Assembly (NCBI GenBank): GCA_045537235.1
Contig: JAZSPB010000156.1
Coordinates: forward strand, 7,982 to 71,981
Length of the DNA stretch: 64,000 nt
Direction: 5' to 3'
Source of the DNA: Eubacteriales bacterium
GTDB taxonomy: Bacteria > Bacillota > Clostridia > Oscillospirales > CAG-272
The notes under the pieces were generated by a model. The model saw only the letters and a list, made by a program, of their open reading frames with translations. It was not told the origin of the DNA and made no database searches. Both the position numbers and the translations under genes were made by a program. Of the stretch, positions 12,837-64,000 are shown piece after piece. The first letter of the stretch is position 1; each line of letters begins with the position of its first letter.

Positions 12837-12925
12837 TGGCGGAAGCGGTGGGATTCGAACCCACGGTACCGTGAGGTACAACTGATTTCGAGTCAGTCCC
12901 GTTATGACCACTTCGATACGCTTCC
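12837..12925 (-). tRNA. tRNA-Ser (anticodon CGA), CCA encoded
   Basis: The reverse complement folds as a cloverleaf. Acceptor GGAAGCG/CGCTTCC. Anticodon stem ACTGA/TCAGT with loop CTCGAAA. Long variable arm GTACC-TCAC-GGTAC. T-arm GTGGG-TTCGAAT-CCCAC. Discriminator G plus CCA. Confidence 0.9.
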
Positions 12926-43317: not shown

Positions 43318-46300
43318 ATGAACAGAAATTCGGATGACAGTATCCACGATATTCTGGAGCGGCTGCGCAAAAATGTGGAAAATCAAGACGACGAGCCGAT
43401 TGCAGAAACCGTTGCCCCCGCGCCCAATACCGAATCCCCTGAAAATCTTTTGGATAAATTAAAAGCACACATGGGAGAAGCCGCGGCAAGCACCGAGGAC
43501 TCTCGAGAAAGCGATTATGACATTCGCGGGTTTGAAATTTCCGAATCGGAGGAACCCGAGATGCCTTCTTCCAAGGAGGAGAAGCAACCGCCTCAAGCGG
43601 AGATGACCGAATCCTCCTCTAAACAGGAATCTTTGATCGATCTGCCATGGGAAGAGGGACCGGAGAGCGCGCCTTCGCTTTCCGAATCATCTGACCTGTT
43701 TGAAGAAGCAGAGAACGGCAGGGGAAATGATGATGAAGAAACGGAATTTCATAAAGATGAGCAAGTTGAAGCGCCAACCGAAACAATTTCTTCTTCTGCG
43801 ATCATTGAGGAAGTGATTGCGGAAGCATCTCTCCCCCCTGAAGCGGAAGAACTTACCGAATCACCCATTGATTGCGCAGAAACGGAAGAATTGCAAGAGT
43901 CGGAGCCTATTGAAGAAAATTCCGATGAACTCGCAGATACAAAACCTCTCAATGATGCCGAAAATCATGCCGATGTTGTCACAGATGTCGTCGCTAACGC
44001 GGAGGATGATGTTGTTGAATTGCCTTCCGTTTCCGCCGACTCTGACACGAGCGAAAGGGAAATGTCTGCCAACGACATCGAAACCGATGAAGAATCGGAC
44101 AATGGTGAACGTACCACCGTTGTAAATACATCTGACACCGTCGAAGATGCGAAAGAAAACGAAACGGTAGACGAACAACCGCTTACAACCGCAGAGATGG
44201 AGGAAGAGGTTCGCAAACGTGTGGAGCTTTTTGTGGAAAAAACAGTAGCTCCCGAGGAAGAGTTTGATTACTTTGCTCAAATGGAACGCGCCGCTATGCG
44301 GAGCAAGCAAAGATCCTCCTCGGAAGAAAGCATTGATACCGAAGCCGTTTCCGCAGACATCACCGATCCTGTGCAAGAAACCCTTCCCGATGAAACGGAT
44401 TCCGAAAACACCGACATTCTTGTGTCCGAGGTTGAGACGACGCCCCCCATTGAGCAAGAATCGCAAACAATGGTTGAGGCACCAATATCTGCAGAAGCAT
44501 TCTCTGTTCTTTCGGAAAATGAAGAAACGATAGCTTCGCCGTTATTGGAAACCAAAACATCTTCCTTTTTCTACCAAAAGAAAGATACGGATGCATCGTC
44601 CAAGGACAGTCTATCCGTTGATCATGCAGCCTCGCGTCTTGATGACACCGACATCAATCTCCTTTTGGCTTTGGGGCAGAAGGATGCGCTGGAAAAGAGT
44701 GTTGGTTTTGTCCGCGTCCGCGAAGCAAAAAATAACTTTTACGATCCCGCTGACGAAGAACCGATCGGAAAAGCCTTTGCTTATAGCGGGGAAGAATTTC
44801 GTTCTTCCGAGCAAGCGGAAACGATCAAAAGCAATTATCGAAAAGAAAGAAAAACACTCTATAAACGCTTGGTTTGCACCTCGCTCCTTTCTCTTGTTTT
44901 GCTGTTTTTGGAGCATCTCACGCTTACCGGTCTCACGATTCCGTATCTTTCCGATTTTTTGTCGGTGAAACTGTACTATAATTTAACCAATCTGGTTCTT
45001 ATCACGCTTTGCTTGCTGATTTCCTTGAAACCGATCTTGAATGGTATCCACGGGTTCTTTACCATGCGTCCCAACCAGCATACCCCTGTTGCCGTCCTTT
45101 CTTTGCTCAACTTGGTCTACAGTATAGCACTGCCGCTGTTTTTCAATTCATCCAACATCAACACCTACAATTTCGTTCTTTCTCTGTTCTGGATCCTTTC
45201 GATTATTGGTGACAATATTCGACTTACCAAAGAGATCATGACATTTGATGTTATTTCGGACAAAAAGGAAAAATTCTCTCTGGAAAAAGCCGAACTCTCT
45301 CCCGAAACCATTCGTGAAAAAAATGTTCTTCAGAAAAGAGATCTGTTGGTGGAACGTGTCAGCTTTGTAGGAAAATATTTTACGAGAACCGCTCGCCGTT
45401 CTGCCGCCTATAACCAATATTTTATTGAGCTTTTAGTTATTTTGACGGTCGCCATTTTATCCGCCGTTGTGACAGCTTTTGTCAGCAACAGTGTATCACA
45501 ATCCGTTCATATGCTGATTTTGGTTCTTTTTATCTGTATACCGGCACAGCATTTGGTTCTCGGCGTTTATCCGTTTGGAAGATTGGCCAAGCTCTTGTAT
45601 AAAAACGACAGCGCCATCATCGGGGAAACCGTTGACCGTGAATATGTTGGTGCCAACACGGTGTATCTTGACGATATTGAAATGTTCGGTCATCATGGTG
45701 TTTCGGTTTCCGGTCTCCGTGTGTATAACGATGCGGATCTTTGCAAGATCTTATATCATGCCTCTGCCGTATTTTCGCAAGTAGAAGGACCGCTTCGTTA
45801 TGTTTTTGAGGATTCTGCCCAAGAGATCGAAGATCCGCAATCGGTAAAGCTTCTAAACATTTGCGCCAATGGTGTCGAAGCGTTGGTGGATTCTCAAGAT
45901 AAGATATTCATCGGTAATATTGGCTTTATGCGCAGTAACGGATTTTTCCCCAAGCGCAATGAGGATGATGACAGAAAAGTCGATAGCGGAGAGATATCTA
46001 TCCTCTATATGACAGTCAATGGGACTCTTTGCGCGAAATTCTATATGAAATATGTCATAACACAACGGTTTGAAAAATTTGTTGAGGAAATGAGCGAAAA
46101 CAATACCAAGGTGGGAATTCGAACCTTGGATCCCAATGTGACCGAACGCATGATCGCTCTTCTTCGCCGCGGAAAGGAAACCGAGATATCGGTCATTCGT
46201 CCGACACTCAACGACCTTACACCTCTTGGAAGACGCTCCGACAGCGGTATTATCACGGCCAAAAGTCCGCACATGATCTCTCGCATTCTTGCGCAGTGTA

Positions 46301-46488
46301 CGCGGTTGAAAAAGATCAATCGATTCAGTTCGTGGATGCGGTTCCTTTCCGGTGTTGTTGGCATAGGTGCAATTGTTGCTTTGATCTTGACTCAAATGAC
46401 CAATAACGTTCCGTCTCTTGCCGTTGCATTCTATCAACTGCTTTGGTTGATTCCAACGCTGATCTATACCAAGATAAAATTGAAATAG
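43318..46488 (+). CDS. Large membrane protein: ~500-aa acidic disordered N-terminus plus a degenerate P1B-type-ATPase-like core (predicted pseudo-ATPase)
   Basis: 1056 aa. Residues 1-~500 are E/D/S/T-rich low complexity. These are followed by ~6 TM helices. ICIPAQ sits where CPC would be, and TVYLDDIEMFG sits where V.FDKTGTLT would be. There is no TGES actuator or GDGxND motif. Two C-terminal TM helices are present. Confidence 0.5.
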   Translation: MNRNSDDSIHDILERLRKNVENQDDEPIAETVAPAPNTESPENLLDKLKAHMGEAAASTEDSRESDYDIRGFEISESEEPEMPSSKEEKQPPQAEMTESSSKQESLIDLPWEEGPESAPSLSESSDLFEEAENGRGNDDEETEFHKDEQVEAPTETISSSAIIEEVIAEASLPPEAEELTESPIDCAETEELQESEPIEENSDELADTKPLNDAENHADVVTDVVANAEDDVVELPSVSADSDTSEREMSANDIETDEESDNGERTTVVNTSDTVEDAKENETVDEQPLTTAEMEEEVRKRVELFVEKTVAPEEEFDYFAQMERAAMRSKQRSSSEESIDTEAVSADITDPVQETLPDETDSENTDILVSEVETTPPIEQESQTMVEAPISAEAFSVLSENEETIASPLLETKTSSFFYQKKDTDASSKDSLSVDHAASRLDDTDINLLLALGQKDALEKSVGFVRVREAKNNFYDPADEEPIGKAFAYSGEEFRSSEQAETIKSNYRKERKTLYKRLVCTSLLSLVLLFLEHLTLTGLTIPYLSDFLSVKLYYNLTNLVLITLCLLISLKPILNGIHGFFTMRPNQHTPVAVLSLLNLVYSIALPLFFNSSNINTYNFVLSLFWILSIIGDNIRLTKEIMTFDVISDKKEKFSLEKAELSPETIREKNVLQKRDLLVERVSFVGKYFTRTARRSAAYNQYFIELLVILTVAILSAVVTAFVSNSVSQSVHMLILVLFICIPAQHLVLGVYPFGRLAKLLYKNDSAIIGETVDREYVGANTVYLDDIEMFGHHGVSVSGLRVYNDADLCKILYHASAVFSQVEGPLRYVFEDSAQEIEDPQSVKLLNICANGVEALVDSQDKIFIGNIGFMRSNGFFPKRNEDDDRKVDSGEISILYMTVNGTLCAKFYMKYVITQRFEKFVEEMSENNTKVGIRTLDPNVTERMIALLRRGKETEISVIRPTLNDLTPLGRRSDSGIITAKSPHMISRILAQCTRLKKINRFSSWMRFLSGVVGIGAIVALILTQMTNNVPSLAVAFYQLLWLIPTLIYTKIKLK

Positions 46489-59654: not shown

Positions 59655-59683
59655 TTGACAAACCCCGTGGTTGATGGTATAAT
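59655..59683 (+). promoter_or_regulatory. Consensus sigma-A promoter of the TerB/ATPase/helicase operon
   Basis: TTGACA (59655-60), a 17-nt spacer, then TATAAT (59678-83) with an upstream TG. It lies 35 nt upstream of the ATG at 59718. Confidence 0.6.
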
Positions 59684-59717
59684 TATAAGATAAGGAAACA
59701 CTGTGGGAGGTGAGAAG

Positions 59718-61346
59718 ATGTCAGACTTGAAAAAGAGCCGAAAAGAGAAGATGAATGATTTTTGGGATATCGGTCGTCTGGTTCCGACAAAGCCGAAAAA
59801 TGTTACCAAACATTCCATCTCCCCCACAAAAATCGAACCTACGGAGATATCGGTAAATATCAGCACACCGTCAAGTGAAACAAGCATCGGTGAGAGTAAA
59901 TTAACCATGACATCTCCGCGAACGGTTACCGAATCGGCACCGTCGGTCTATGCCGAATATCCCAATTTCTCTCCACTTATCCCTCATGTGAAAATTGTTA
60001 ATTGGAAAAGCACTTATAACTATTATGAGTTTTTCTGTCGGCAAGCTGCCGCCTTATATCAAAAGCAGGGAAGCGAATGTCCCGAAGTCCATTTCTTTTC
60101 CTATGTAGCGCAATATTCGCAATTGAACCGCCGTCAGCTTGACTGGTATCTTTGGTGGCGCGAATGCGTGAGAAACGGAGAATATCGAAGTACAGACATC
60201 AGTTATATCTACCTTCTGATCTTTGAGATCATCAATTTGGGAAATGCCATTGACACTCGAAAATCTTTGGATATTTTGATCGCACTTTGGGTGAATTATA
60301 AAGAAATATACCCTCAACTTGTGGGGGCATTAGGCGATTGGATCTGCGATTACAGTTTAATTCATAATCTTCCGATCCGATTTCCGATGGCAGGGATCGA
60401 CCGTAATATGATCTCGAATGTATCCTTTGCAGAGTCCTTTTGCCATTTTGATCTTTCTAACACCTCACTTTTGGCAAAATTTTTAATTTCCTTCTGTAAC
60501 TCCTACAATTACAGAAAAAGCAAGTTTTATACAGAGGCGTTGCAACTGCTTTATGAGGAGCATCTCCCCGGGGCGCTGGAATATCTCCTGGGAAAGATCG
60601 ATTTGCCGTCAGCCTTGGCTGCACAGCCGCGAAAACACATCAGTCGTGTTGCCTTCACCGGGGCACTTTGTTCTTATAAAAACCGAAAGCATATCGAGGC
60701 AGACTACATTTCTTTGTGCGACTCTCATGAAATAAGAAGCCGCATCGGAGATATTATCAAATATGCAGAAAATAAGCTTCGAGCCTTTTCGGGAATTCGT
60801 TCACGGCTTGGCGTTCCGTCATTAGACGAAAAAACCAAGGCAACCGTGGATGAATATTTTGCTCAAATGCATATGACAAACAGGGAAACCGAGTTTGAAC
60901 ATCCCGAATATGAAGCACTCTATGAAGCCAAGGAAATCACGTTTTCATTGGCGTCTGCTCTCGACATTGAAAACCGCTCATGGGAAGTCACGGAAAAACT
61001 GGTGGACGCCTTTGAAGAAGAAAACGAAACACCGCCACCGCCGGAAGAAATTGAAATTATTCCTTCCGACGATTTGGGGGGAGAGGCAGATGAAACCGTT
61101 CAATTTTTCACTTCTATTGCCAATCATCTCGATTTTTTTCACCTTATCGTACATGAAGATTTTATCGGACAGCGCTCCTACATCAGCCAACATCGCATTT
61201 TGCCTGAAGCCGTAGTAGATGAGATCAATGAAAAAGCCGCCGATATTTTTGGCGATATCGTGATTGAAGAAACCGATGACGGCTATTGTATTATGGAAGA
61301 TTACCGTTCTATGTTTAAACAGGAGGATGAAAGCCATGCCAAATAA
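59718..61346 (+). CDS. TerB_N / TerB_C domain protein
   Basis: 542 aa from the ATG at 59718 (GGGAGGTG RBS). The GTG at 59703 in the ORF track lies inside the RBS. The S/T/P-rich N-terminal ~95 aa are followed by FFSYVAQYSQLNRRQLDWYLWWRECVRNGEYRSTDISYIYLLIFEIINLG, which looks like TerB_N. An acidic linker (EENETPPPPEEIEIIPSDD) follows. The C-terminus HRILPEAVVDEINEKAADIFGDIVIEE looks like TerB_C. Confidence 0.65.
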   Translation: MSDLKKSRKEKMNDFWDIGRLVPTKPKNVTKHSISPTKIEPTEISVNISTPSSETSIGESKLTMTSPRTVTESAPSVYAEYPNFSPLIPHVKIVNWKSTYNYYEFFCRQAAALYQKQGSECPEVHFFSYVAQYSQLNRRQLDWYLWWRECVRNGEYRSTDISYIYLLIFEIINLGNAIDTRKSLDILIALWVNYKEIYPQLVGALGDWICDYSLIHNLPIRFPMAGIDRNMISNVSFAESFCHFDLSNTSLLAKFLISFCNSYNYRKSKFYTEALQLLYEEHLPGALEYLLGKIDLPSALAAQPRKHISRVAFTGALCSYKNRKHIEADYISLCDSHEIRSRIGDIIKYAENKLRAFSGIRSRLGVPSLDEKTKATVDEYFAQMHMTNRETEFEHPEYEALYEAKEITFSLASALDIENRSWEVTEKLVDAFEEENETPPPPEEIEIIPSDDLGGEADETVQFFTSIANHLDFFHLIVHEDFIGQRSYISQHRILPEAVVDEINEKAADIFGDIVIEETDDGYCIMEDYRSMFKQEDESHAK

Positions 61347-62673
61347 CACTCATGCCGTTCCCAAACGCATTTTGTCTTCGCTTATTGCGTCGGTCTCTGC
61401 CGGTGTGGTTCCGCGCGCGGGAGCGCCTTATATGGCCATTGGGCGCAATGACGAGATTACTGCGCTTTTGGGCGATTTGGAACGTATCAGCGACGGTGAA
61501 GGGGCTATTCGCTTTATCATCGGACGCTACGGAAGCGGAAAAAGCTTCTTGATCCAACTGGTACGTGGATATGCCTTGGAAAAGGATTTTATTACCGCCG
61601 ACGCAGATCTGTCTCCCGAAAGAAGACTTTACGGTACTAACGGAAGCGGTATTGCCACCTATCGTGAATTGATCAAAAATATGGCCTCCAAATCCTCTCC
61701 TGACGGCGGAGCGCTTTCTAAATTGATTTCTAAGTGGATCTCTTCGCTCCGTTTGAAATTGCTGAATGACGGAATCGATGAGAGCTCTCCTGCGTTTGTT
61801 ACCAAACTTTCGGCAGAAGCCGCCCTGGCACTTCGCGACATCGAGTTTCTCGTAGGCGGTTTTGACTTTTCAAAAATCATTTCGGAGTATTATCGCGCCT
61901 TTATGGATGGCAATGACGACAGACAAAGTTCCTGTCTTCGCTGGCTCCGCGGTGAATATAGCAGTAAAACCGAGGCAAGACAAGCCCTTGGCTTTAATGT
62001 ATCTGTTATCATCAACGATGACAACTGGTATGATTTTATCAAGCTTTGGGCGGTACTGGTGCGCAAGATGGGATATCGCGGTCTGATGGTGTTTATTGAT
62101 GAATGTGTCAACCTTTATAAGATTACCAACCGTATCAGCCGAGAAAACAACTACGAAAAGATCTTGTCCATGTTCAATGACACGCTTCAAGGACACGCCG
62201 AAGGACTTTCCATCGTGTTTGCGGGAACTCCTCAATTTTTAGATGATACCCGTCGCGGTCTTTTTAGCTACGAAGCATTAAGAAGCCGCCTTTGTGACAG
62301 TAAATATGAATTGGACGGTGTTAAAAACCTGAACAACCCCATTATCCGTCTTGTCAGACTTAACGACAATGAACTCTTTGCCTTGCTTCGACGGATGACC
62401 GATCTTTTCGCCCAATATCATTCATGGGAACCTCGTTTGACCAATGAAGAGATCGCCGCCTTTCTGCGCACGGAGCTTGGTCGCGTAGGAAGCGATTCTA
62501 TGGTGACCCCTCGAGAGATCATCCGCGATTATATGACAATTCTCAACATCCTTTTGCAAAATGCTGAGGTATCCTTCGGTGATATTTTGCAAAAGAGAGA
62601 ACAGCAGGATGGAAAACCGAAAACCACTACCACGGAAACCAAAAAAATTACCGCTGCCGATATTGAATTTTAA
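61336..62673 (+). CDS. DUF2791-type P-loop ATPase (BREX BrxC/BrxD-like ATP-binding protein)
   Basis: 445 aa. The ATG at 61336 sits 9 nt after GGAGG and overlaps the upstream stop by 11 nt. Walker A is GRYGSGKS and Walker B is LMVFIDE. The N-terminal RILSSLIASVSAGVVPRAGAPYMAIGR and the overall ORC/Cdc6-like layout match my recollection of DUF2791. Confidence 0.7.
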   Translation: MPNNTHAVPKRILSSLIASVSAGVVPRAGAPYMAIGRNDEITALLGDLERISDGEGAIRFIIGRYGSGKSFLIQLVRGYALEKDFITADADLSPERRLYGTNGSGIATYRELIKNMASKSSPDGGALSKLISKWISSLRLKLLNDGIDESSPAFVTKLSAEAALALRDIEFLVGGFDFSKIISEYYRAFMDGNDDRQSSCLRWLRGEYSSKTEARQALGFNVSVIINDDNWYDFIKLWAVLVRKMGYRGLMVFIDECVNLYKITNRISRENNYEKILSMFNDTLQGHAEGLSIVFAGTPQFLDDTRRGLFSYEALRSRLCDSKYELDGVKNLNNPIIRLVRLNDNELFALLRRMTDLFAQYHSWEPRLTNEEIAAFLRTELGRVGSDSMVTPREIIRDYMTILNILLQNAEVSFGDILQKREQQDGKPKTTTTETKKITAADIEF

Positions 62674-62688
62674 AAAGGAGAGATGCAC

Positions 62689-64000
62689 ATGACCAAAGCA
62701 GACCGCCTGTTCGAACAGTTTCCCGAATATATCAAACGCTTTATCTATGAAAGCGGCTGGGACTCTTTGCGAGAGGTGCAGATTGCCGCAGCGGAAAGTC
62801 TTTGGAACGGCGACAACAACCTTTTACTTTGCTCCTCCACGGCCAGCGGAAAAACAGAAGCGGTCTTCTTTCCCATCCTCGCAGATTTGGATCGCGATCC
62901 CTCTGCAAGCATTGCCGTGCTTTACATCGCACCGATCAAAAGTCTTATCAACGACCAGTTTTTGCGCATGGAAACACTCCTTGAGGAAAGTGGCATTCCC
63001 GTATTCCATTGGCACGGAGATGTTGCCGCCTCACACAAAAAGCAACTGCTTGACGATCCGCGCGGCGTTTTACAGATTACGCCCGAGTCATTGGAATCCA
63101 TGCTCATCAATCGTTCTAACGATATTGTTCGTCTGTTTCATGACGTCAGATATGTTATTATCGATGAAATTCATTCACTGATCGGAAGTGACCGCGGCAG
63201 TCAGATCATTTGTCAACTGACTCGATTGGGGCGGCTCATTGGTAAGCACCCTCGTCGCATCGGACTTTCGGCAACGATCGGGGATCCGGAAGAAGTTGCG
63301 CGTTGGATGTCCTTTGGGAGTGGGCGCGGAGTAGATATTCCTGCCATACAGCCTGCAAAGATTACATGGAGATTGGGGCTTGAGCATTTTTACATTCAAA
63401 ATCAAAACTTTGATCAATCCAATGTTCGCGTGCCGATGACTCAGGGGGCAGCCAAAGCCGGATTTGATGCCGGTTTTGAATATATGTACGATTGTGTAAA
63501 GGACAAAAAAGCCCTTGTTTTTTCCAATTCCCGTGAAGAAACCGAATATATTACCGCCACGATGCGCCAAATTGCACGCAAACGGGGGGAGAGAGATGTA
63601 TTTCTCATCCATCACGGAAATCTTTCCGCAAGCCTTCGAGAGGAGGCAGAAAGCAGAATGAAAGATGACGAGCAACAGCAACTTGTCACTTGCGCAACCG
63701 TCACTATGGAACTGGGCATTGACATCGGAAAACTTCAACGAGTTCTCCAATACGACTCACCGCACTCGGTAGCCGGCTTTTTACAGCGTCTCGGTAGATC
63801 GGGACGGCGCAATGACCCTCCCGAAATGATGATGGTCTTCCGAGAGGACGAGCCTTTGCCCGATGCCCCCCTGCCACAATTGATTCCGTGGGGACTTATT
63901 CGCGCAATTGCCATCATTCAGCTCTACATCGAGGAGCGATTTATCGAGCCTCCCAGCATCAAAAAAATGCCCATGAGCCTGCTGTTCCATCAAACATTAA
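62689..64000 (+). CDS. SF2 DEAD/DEAH-box helicase, Lhr/BrxHI-like (5' part; the ORF continues beyond the window)
   Basis: I translated it by hand from the ATG at 62689 (AAGGAGAG RBS). The frame is open to base 64000, so it is absent from the ORF track. Motifs: I SSTASGKTEA, Ia YIAPIKSLINDQ, II DEIH, III SAT, V TVTMELGIDIG, VI QRLGRSGRR. Confidence 0.8.
   Translation, partial: MTKADRLFEQFPEYIKRFIYESGWDSLREVQIAAAESLWNGDNNLLLCSSTASGKTEAVFFPILADLDRDPSASIAVLYIAPIKSLINDQFLRMETLLEESGIPVFHWHGDVAASHKKQLLDDPRGVLQITPESLESMLINRSNDIVRLFHDVRYVIIDEIHSLIGSDRGSQIICQLTRLGRLIGKHPRRIGLSATIGDPEEVARWMSFGSGRGVDIPAIQPAKITWRLGLEHFYIQNQNFDQSNVRVPMTQGAAKAGFDAGFEYMYDCVKDKKALVFSNSREETEYITATMRQIARKRGERDVFLIHHGNLSASLREEAESRMKDDEQQQLVTCATVTMELGIDIGKLQRVLQYDSPHSVAGFLQRLGRSGRRNDPPEMMMVFREDEPLPDAPLPQLIPWGLIRAIAIIQLYIEERFIEPPSIKKMPMSLLFHQTL

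Follow-up and report, generated by a model that had tools for sequence, protein, structure and literature searches.

A chromosomal Shango operon (sngABC) in an uncultured gut Clostridia lineage, and a proposed loader/sensor mechanism for its products

Positions 59655-64000 of the window, the 64,000-nucleotide stretch of DNA analysed here, very probably hold a chromosomal copy of the Shango system (sngA, sngB, sngC), arranged as one promoter-driven operon and with a proposed loader/sensor mechanism. Family membership of all three proteins and the operon architecture were observed directly in the present analysis; the triad is a typical Shango copy, already known, and defence annotators carry matching profiles for it. 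Shango, a three-gene system of a TerB-like protein, an ATPase and a DEAD/DEAH helicase, was found independently by Millman et al. 2022 and Johnson et al. 2023. In E. coli it reduces the replication of two phages approximately 10-fold (Millman et al. 2022; Johnson et al. 2023), and in P. aeruginosa PAO1 it lowers phage plating 10- to 100-fold (Johnson et al. 2023). By analogy with the homologous operons of E. coli and P. aeruginosa PA14, the present clostridial copy would be expected to restrict phages as well. An earlier note on this DNA had described the triad as uncharacterised and lacking experimental function, a view now out of date given best PADLOC matches to SngA, SngB and SngC of the published Shango; its reading of the genes as defence-like was correct.

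Organization of the operon

The features of the locus are collected in Table 1. Adjacent, co-directional and served by one upstream promoter, as is required of Shango as a single operon, sngABC is transcribed as one unit from a strong, conserved, predicted sigma-70 promoter. The -35 and -10 hexamers (the latter at 59678-59683) agree with consensus at 12 of 12 positions, with the TG extension in addition, and both blocks are identical in the window and in three orthologous loci (L038, L001 and L002). Synonymous sites are saturated among these four genomes, yet the promoter blocks are unchanged. SngA and SngB coding regions overlap by 11 nt and a spacer of 15 nt separates sngB from sngC, and because these junctions are tight, translational coupling across them is suggested. 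The consensus promoter (TTGACA-17-TATAAT), the 11-nt overlap and the short gap before the third gene had all been read from the sequence in the earlier note, and all three hold.

Table 1. Features of the sngABC locus, numbered from the first nucleotide of the window
Feature	Positions	Strand	Description
Promoter, sigma-70-type	59655..59683	+	-35 TTGACA 59655-59660; 17-nt spacer; extended -10 TGgTATAAT 59675-59683
sngA (gene 1)	59718..61346	+	ATG 59718, TAA 61346; 542 aa; RBS GGAGG 59706-59710
sngB (gene 2)	61336..62673	+	ATG 61336, TAA 62673; 445 aa; BrxC_BrxD (DUF2791) AAA+ ATPase
sngC (gene 3)	62689..64000	+	ATG 62689; N-terminal 437 codons, gene cut by the window end; SF2 DEAD/DEAH helicase

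The three families, their order and their orientation are those of the validated systems. Their best PADLOC matches are near full length (for SngC by way of its L038 orthologue), and they form a stand-alone three-gene operon having no additional effector. The A-B-C order is kept in 27 complete Clostridia loci, and in several others that are cut at a contig end. The present copy differs from the validated ones in its host, an uncultured gut member of the Clostridia (Eubacteriales) as opposed to the Proteobacteria E. coli and P. aeruginosa.

The three proteins

SngB belongs to Pfam family BrxC_BrxD (PF10923, formerly DUF2791; 4.9e-149), and its best PADLOC match is SngB at 5.6e-162 and 538 bits, over profile positions 4-422 of 439. 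Both nucleotide-binding motifs are intact, Walker A (GRYGSGKS) at residues 63-70 (nt 61522-61545) and Walker B (LMVFIDE) at residues 250-256 (nt 62083-62103).

Gene 3 encodes, from its sequence, a predicted DEAD/DEAH helicase of superfamily SF2, within the Lhr/BrxHI-like clade; the literature assigns SngC, together with BrxHI, DruE and DpdJ, to a clade of SF2 helicases specific to defence. The fragment within the window matches DEAD (1.2e-27) and Helicase_C (8.4e-18) and has intact motifs I (ASGKTEA, residues 52-58), II (DEIH, 159-162), III (SAT, 194-196) and VI (QRLGRSGRR, 366-374). Its best PADLOC match is SngC (1e-159, 532 bits), with the N-terminal 437 residues covering profile positions 6-424 of 720. 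The C-terminal portion, approximately 300 residues, lies beyond the window end, and the syntenic full-length orthologue of 739 residues (L038:11357-13576), which is 85% identical to SngC, matches the same profile end to end (3.3e-237, positions 6-709 of 720) and also gives a weak WH_Lhr signal.

In SngA, TerB_N (residues 103-219, 1.3e-14) and TerB_C (residues 403-531, 4.8e-11) were recovered by Pfam at 54.8 and 43.5 bits, above gathering cut-offs of 25 and 26.3, respectively. The best PADLOC match of the protein is SngA (3e-50), residues 73-535 aligning with profile positions 74-525 of 528. Conserved blocks include QLDWYLWWR (residues 140-148), YIYLLIFEIINLG (163-175) and VVDEINEKAADIFGDIVIEE (499-518), and the protein begins with a conserved helix spanning residues 3-21, F15, W16 and L21 among them. 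Of its two linkers, one is disordered (about residues 30-66) and the other acidic (about residues 436-456). Although neither SngA nor SngB has a solved structure in the PDB, as searched here, an AlphaFold2 model of SngA was obtained with mean pLDDT 86.5; a Foldseek search of this model against the PDB gave zero fold matches at E<=0.001. A profile search of PDB sequences with SngA gave only a marginal MarR/wHTH match (E=0.01, residues 371-493), which is not relied on.

These assignments bear out the domain reading made in the earlier note, namely TerB_N-like and TerB_C-like blocks in gene 1, a DUF2791-like frame with Walker A and B motifs in gene 2, and the SF2 motif set in gene 3. Of the Pfam domains that it proposed to look for, TerB_N, TerB_C, BrxC_BrxD, DEAD and Helicase_C were recovered, and DUF1998 was found neither in the window fragment of SngC nor in the full-length orthologue.

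Relation to BREX, Ter and other TerB-containing systems

The kinship of genes 2 and 3 with the BrxD/BrxHI pair, proposed in the earlier note, is real, as BrxD (4e-46, 156 bits) and BrxHI (6.3e-98, 327 bits) are the second-best PADLOC families of the two proteins. BrxD, an ORC/Cdc6 AAA+ ATPase, is tightly paired with BrxHI, and a recent comparative analysis proposed that it serves as a helicase loader. Like BrxD, SngB falls into the BrxC_BrxD family and into the AAA+ fold class of ORC/Cdc6 type; SngC, for its part, is a sister of BrxHI among the SF2 helicases, both having a C-terminal region that resembles Lhr. The ATPase gene lies next to the helicase gene in Shango and in type 2 BREX (Pgl) alike. 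With the dyad so tightly linked in type 2 BREX, the triad might be what is left of a type 2 (or type 6) BREX system, or a satellite to one, with the PglX/PglZ/BrxC core lying nearby or lost. That reading is largely refuted and highly improbable. Gene 2 scores 538 bits with SngB and 156 with BrxD, gene 3 scores 532 with SngC and 327 with BrxHI, and gene 2 stays under the threshold of the BrxD equivalog (NCBIfam NF033438 BREX_BrxD, cut-off 350 bits, score 156.2). None of the 54 ORFs over 59 kb upstream matches a BREX family by PADLOC, brxC/pglY, pglX and pglZ included, and none of the 25 Pfam families listed for them is a BREX family, in agreement with the earlier note that the BREX core is missing on that side. 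Downstream of the helicase gene, the syntenic loci L038 and L001 carry genes for polysaccharide deacetylases, a SpoU methylase and unknown proteins. Further, PglX, PglZ, BrxC and PglW are absent from the Shango locus, whose third partner is a protein with TerB_N and TerB_C and with SngA as its profile match.

The TerB_N and TerB_C domains of gene 1 could also be taken to indicate a tellurite or stress-resistance (Ter) module, a reading of negligible probability. The TerB core domain (PF05099) was not found in gene 1 by Pfam search, terZ/A/C/D/E-like genes appear neither among the 25 Pfam families listed for the 54 other window ORFs nor in the relatives, and the partners, an AAA+ ATPase and a helicase, make a DNA-linked context unlike that of a ter operon. 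TerB-superfamily proteins are also found in phage defence in BnzA of Bunzi and DinB of Dionysus, with a proposed role in sensing or membrane surveillance. In those two systems, however, TerB is paired with membrane or pore-forming proteins, whereas SngA consists of TerB_N and TerB_C modules only and its partners are DNA motor proteins.

Genomic context and selective constraint

In four genomes that are deeply diverged the triad occupies one and the same place in the chromosome, between the gene for a 145-residue membrane protein on one side and polysaccharide deacetylase genes on the other. The lineage in this respect differs from the validated Shango systems, keeping the operon at one site across deep divergence and among housekeeping genes, outside any defence island or hotspot; P. 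aeruginosa Shango resides in the cDHS1 hotspot. No defence system or mobility gene was seen beside the locus, and no integrase or transposase was found near the operon; att-like repeats, direct or inverted, were sought around it in L038 and L001, with only chance-level matches of 14-30 nt as a result. The earlier note had suggested that the system may extend past the window. The helicase gene is indeed cut there, but the relatives indicate that only about 300 residues remain: in the three syntenic relatives the operon stops after the 739-residue SngC and housekeeping genes come next.

The locus is accessory, being present or absent, as was observed directly in metagenome contig L039, where the same flanking genes are joined without Shango (the GDSL protein being 66% identical). 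The flank-anchored scan of metagenome contigs found this one locus, which documents an empty site and not a frequency. Because L039 is similarly related and has the site empty, the module is dispensable. Elsewhere the triad turns up in six or more unrelated genomic settings, and also on plasmids, beside a relaxase and IS elements; on a Clostridium estertheticum plasmid, for example, a TerB N-terminal domain protein, an ATP-binding protein and a DEAD/DEAH helicase lie beside a relaxase and IS110. SngB homologues were found on 696 plasmids and, in the search made, not in phage genomes.

Substitution rates add to this picture. Among the syntenic genomes dN is 0.12-0.21 for sngB and 0.10-0.19 for sngC, and two- to four-fold higher (0.40-0.47) for adjacent ispE and pfkB; likewise SngB and SngC are 81-86% identical between genomes, versus 43-64% for the flanks. 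Purifying selection on sngB and sngC is stronger than on the neighbouring housekeeping genes. SngA evolves approximately 3 times faster than SngB and SngC. Recent horizontal transfer was considered as the source of the high SngB/SngC conservation and was rejected, because pS is saturated (0.77-0.84) for all genes, sngB and sngC included. Long retention at one site together with strong constraint on sngB and sngC is unusual for a defence system.

Such retention, across four genomes with saturated synonymous sites, the low dN of sngB and sngC and the housekeeping neighbourhood would fit a reading in which the triad serves mainly in host genome maintenance (DNA repair or processing with an Lhr-type helicase) in this lineage and not in phage defence. 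In another Clostridial group the triad adjoins radA and the gene for RNase Y, and the solved structures closest to the SngC helicase core are those of the repair enzymes YprA/MrfA (6znp, 4e-30) and Lhr (5v9x, 4e-29; 7lhl, 3e-28). SngC differs from Lhr and YprA in lacking DUF1998 and in having an AAA+ ATPase and a TerB-type protein as fixed partners. Nevertheless, this reading is very unlikely. The N-terminal 437 residues of SngC, the only part scored, fall far under the cut-offs of the repair-helicase equivalogs (TIGR04121, ligase-associated DEXH, 194 against 850 bits; PRK13767, 182 against 849) and score much higher, at 532 bits, with the SngC profile. The empty site and the scatter of the triad over unrelated contexts and plasmids also argue against it, as do the experiments in which homologous systems restrict phages. 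Moreover, since the loci were collected by a search with SngB, apparent retention is biased toward carrier genomes. For the same lineage, the idea that Shango is a long-term resident instead of a transient defence cassette is an unlikely one; it draws on the stay at one site from before synonymous saturation, the unchanged promoter, the constraint on sngB and sngC and the faster evolution of SngA.

Proposed mechanism

With Shango as the preferred identity, a mechanism can be proposed by analogy with the BrxD/BrxHI dyad, the likeliest model being one in which the ATPase would load or activate the helicase and SngA would act as sensor or regulator. SngB would oligomerise on ATP and would load SngC, or activate it, at phage DNA or at intermediates of replication or recombination, and SngA would couple a phage cue to this ATPase-helicase motor. 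The proposed sensor is the fast-evolving component and has a tethered, conserved N-terminal helix. Since no recognisable nuclease or toxin domain was seen in SngA, SngB or the window part of SngC, restriction may come about through a helicase that disrupts the replication of phage DNA, or through host nucleases that are recruited. Literature up to 2025 calls the role of TerB-type domains in defence unclear, and a literature search did not find a paper dedicated to the mechanism of Shango.

Conclusions

In summary, as a discovery the operon adds little, for current defence annotators would label its genes Shango. It does document Shango among uncultured gut Clostridia, surrounded by housekeeping genes and with an empty site in a relative. 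On the unlikely reading of long-term residence, the SngB-SngC motor could have a host genome-maintenance role besides defence, or SngA could be an arms-race sensor. If Shango were a long-term resident of these gut Clostridia, the lineage would lend itself, as a natural system, to finding the Shango trigger. The contrast of fast-evolving SngA with slowly evolving SngB and SngC marks SngA as the place to look for trigger sensing.

Identity of the operon

Three co-directional genes near the 3' end of the window had been read from sequence, in an earlier note, as an uncharacterised BrxD/BrxHI-type module with a TerB_N/TerB_C protein. Pfam searches recovered the families named there, with TerB_N (1.3e-14) and TerB_C (4.8e-11) in gene 1, the BrxC_BrxD family (PF10923, the former DUF2791; 4.9e-149) in gene 2, and DEAD and Helicase_C in gene 3. 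The best PADLOC matches are SngA for gene 1 (3e-50, with almost the entire profile covered), SngB for gene 2 (5.6e-162) and SngC for gene 3 (1e-159, the alignment ending at the window end); second matches are clearly weaker (BrxD at 4e-46 for gene 2, BrxHI at 6e-98 for gene 3). Gene 2 scores 156 bits against the NCBIfam BrxD equivalog, below the cut-off of 350, and the 437-codon fragment of gene 3 falls far under the threshold of the NCBIfam repair-helicase equivalogs. Judged by these profile matches, the triad is SngA, SngB and SngC, the three components of Shango, in a standard Shango operon. A Ter stress module is excluded, there being no TerB core domain in gene 1 and no Ter family among the 25 Pfam families listed for the rest of the window.

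Shango is a defence system whose protein bears TerB domains (Millman et al. 2022). In P. aeruginosa PA14 it consists of three genes, encoding a TerB-like protein, an ATPase and a DEAD/DEAH helicase, and in PAO1 this system lowers plating efficiency 10- to 100-fold for many phages (Johnson et al. 2023); E. coli Shango inhibits two phages roughly 10-fold (noted in Johnson et al. 2023). Given this published phage restriction together with the profile matches, the triad is already named and experimentally validated, and the description "uncharacterised" fails, while the defence-like interpretation that accompanied it was correct.

Operon layout and extent

Promoter scanning and ORF coordinates confirmed the consensus promoter, gene overlap and gene order described previously, and each quoted peptide motif was found at its expected position. 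No other perfect promoter match occurs in the 5 kb scanned. An alternative start for sngA, an in-frame GTG at 59703, is unlikely.

Features of the window and of compared loci
Feature	Location	Strand	Remarks
tRNA-Ser	12837-12925		sole RNA gene in window
1056-aa ORF	43318-46485	+	no Pfam match at E<=0.001
Promoter TTGACA-17-TATAAT	59655-59683	+	12/12 match, TG extension
Invariant promoter blocks	window 59655-59700; L038:8300-8350; L001; L002		ATTGACAA, 17 nt, TGnTATAATTA, then GATAAG
Gene 1 (sngA)	ATG 59718 to TAA 61346	+	GGAGG at 59706-59710
Gene 2 (sngB)	ATG 61336 to TAA 62673	+	AGGAGG upstream; 11-nt overlap with gene 1
Gene 3 (sngC)	from ATG 62689	+	AAGGAG upstream; 15-nt spacer after gene 2; exits window after 437 codons
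Empty site	L039:8364-9745		metagenome contig JAEIGA010007949.1
Second Clostridial group, example	L008:6682-8070
252-aa ORF	L015:11393-12148		between sngB and sngC
849-aa protein	L040:10596-13142		Clostridium estertheticum plasmid pCF002-344; ATP-binding cassette domain; 18 nt after Shango helicase

Three Shango-bearing loci (L001, L002 and L038) share their gene order upstream of the operon with the window; downstream of it they are syntenic among themselves. The shared upstream genes are ispE, pfkB (absent in L002) and those for a DUF4358 protein, a GDSL hydrolase and a 145-aa membrane protein; downstream lie polysaccharide deacetylases (two in L001 and L038), an unknown protein and a SpoU methylase (L001 and L038). 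SngC is 739 aa long in L038 and L001 and aligns to the SngC profile over its full length (3.3e-237), and no BREX-like or defence-like genes follow it there. The window is therefore short of only about 300 sngC codons, and the triad stands alone. Judged by these relatives, the earlier suggestion that it may extend past the window holds for the cut helicase and not for further genes.

The 54 other ORFs of the window are housekeeping genes (among them gyrase/topoisomerase IV subunit A, RF-1, AsnA, HtpG, ABC transporters and a radical SAM enzyme), and no BREX component, integrase or transposase was found among their PADLOC matches and the 25 Pfam families listed for them, bearing out the claim that no BREX core lies upstream. 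The triad as a BREX remnant is therefore excluded: core genes are absent upstream in the window and downstream in the syntenic relatives, the Shango profiles outrank BrxD and BrxHI, and the NCBIfam BrxD threshold is missed. GC content at the locus (0.45-0.47) lies inside the window's range, and no att-like repeats bracketing the operon were found in L038 and L001. One ORF in window 1-59600 matches the PADLOC candidate family PDC-S07 (4e-45); the remaining upstream PADLOC matches resemble generic ABC/AAA ATPase similarity.

Constraint and presence at the site

Among the four syntenic genomes SngB and SngC are 75-86% identical and flanking proteins 38-64%. Recent transfer as the cause of the high SngB and SngC identity was rejected, since synonymous differences are saturated (pS 0.77-0.84) in sngB and sngC, as they are in the flanks. 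sngB and sngC have dN values of 0.10-0.21, compared with 0.38-0.52 in sngA and 0.40-0.47 in ispE and pfkB; the ATPase and helicase are strongly constrained, and SngA evolves faster, by about 3-fold. The -35 and extended -10 blocks of the promoter are invariant in all four genomes despite the synonymous saturation, which implies strong selection on operon expression. Together, saturated synonymous sites, low sngB and sngC dN and the invariant promoter show the operon to be an old resident at this site.

Metagenome contigs were scanned for the flanking GDSL gene, and on the one contig recovered (L039) the 145-aa membrane protein gene adjoins the deacetylase genes, about 140 bp apart, without Shango. 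Its GDSL protein is 66% identical and its genome is related as closely as the Shango-bearing ones. The locus is thus polymorphic for Shango presence.

Distribution in other genomes

A look-up for an identical SngB sequence gave no record. Scanning genomes for SngB gave 38 loci, mostly in gut/rumen Eubacteriales/Clostridia MAGs (best identity 82-83%), with the A-B-C order kept in 27 complete loci and several cut at a contig end. In Clostridia the triad occupies at least six different genomic contexts. A second Clostridial group (L006-L017) has it at a conserved site, with RadA immediately adjacent upstream in many and large unknown ORFs (880-1360 aa) in others, and with RNase Y and TldD/PmbA downstream, variable extra genes following sngC. 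SngB homologues occur on 696 plasmids, and on one from Clostridium estertheticum the annotated triad adjoins a relaxase and an IS110 transposase; none were found in the phage genomes searched.

Of the rival readings, only a housekeeping repair module has some support, drawn from long-term synteny, strong constraint and the housekeeping neighbourhood, but it is weakened by the empty site in a relative, the multiple contexts and plasmid carriage, the published phage phenotypes, and the gathering of loci by SngB presence, which biases the sample towards retention. Overall, Shango here behaves as an accessory, horizontally spread system that is stably kept in this lineage.

Several loci depart from the standard arrangement. 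The 849-aa protein of pCF002-344 could belong to the system as a fourth component or simply be encoded next to it, and one related locus (L015) has an additional ORF between sngB and sngC (Table). Six loci (L026, L027, L029, L034-L036) have a SngB-family ATPase with no SngC helicase detected nearby, the ATPase being preceded by an 874-aa SngA-like protein in L026 and by a 340-aa protein in L027 and L029; these may represent variants with two genes, or other systems that employ the same ATPase. SngB homologues (43-45% identity) in MAGs of the gut/rumen archaea Candidatus Methanomethylophilaceae (L032, L037), with a SngC homologue (40%) also in L032, suggest inter-domain transfer in the gut habitat.

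Structure and possible mechanism

A PDB sequence search gave no solved relatives of SngA or SngB, and for SngC the nearest are YprA/MrfA and Lhr. The AlphaFold2 model for SngA drew on 72 homologues; it is confident, with a mean pLDDT of 86.5 (>90 through most of aa 70-390), and matched no PDB fold at E<=0.001. Model and alignment describe a conserved short N-terminal helix (F15, W16 and L21 invariant), a disordered stretch of about 40 residues that links it to a core containing TerB_N, then an acidic linker and a helical TerB_C domain.

The literature search returned no published mechanism for Shango. Helicase phylogeny groups SngC with BrxHI, DruE and DpdJ in a defence-specific SF2 clade, and a 2026 comparative analysis treats BrxD as an ORC/Cdc6-type AAA+ ATPase, tightly linked to BrxHI and proposed to load or activate that helicase. 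SngB might likewise load or activate SngC on phage DNA or replication intermediates. According to a 2025 preprint, what TerB-type proteins do in defence is still unclear, and membrane surveillance is again put forward there; SngA could act as a sensor or regulator, a role that would agree with its faster evolution. Interference is proposed to be helicase-driven because Pfam recognises no nuclease or toxin domain in the Shango proteins, here or in the syntenic relatives.

In summary, the system is already known and the operon is annotated as Shango by existing tools; the remaining interest lies in the mechanism of Shango and in how unusually stable this copy has been in evolution.
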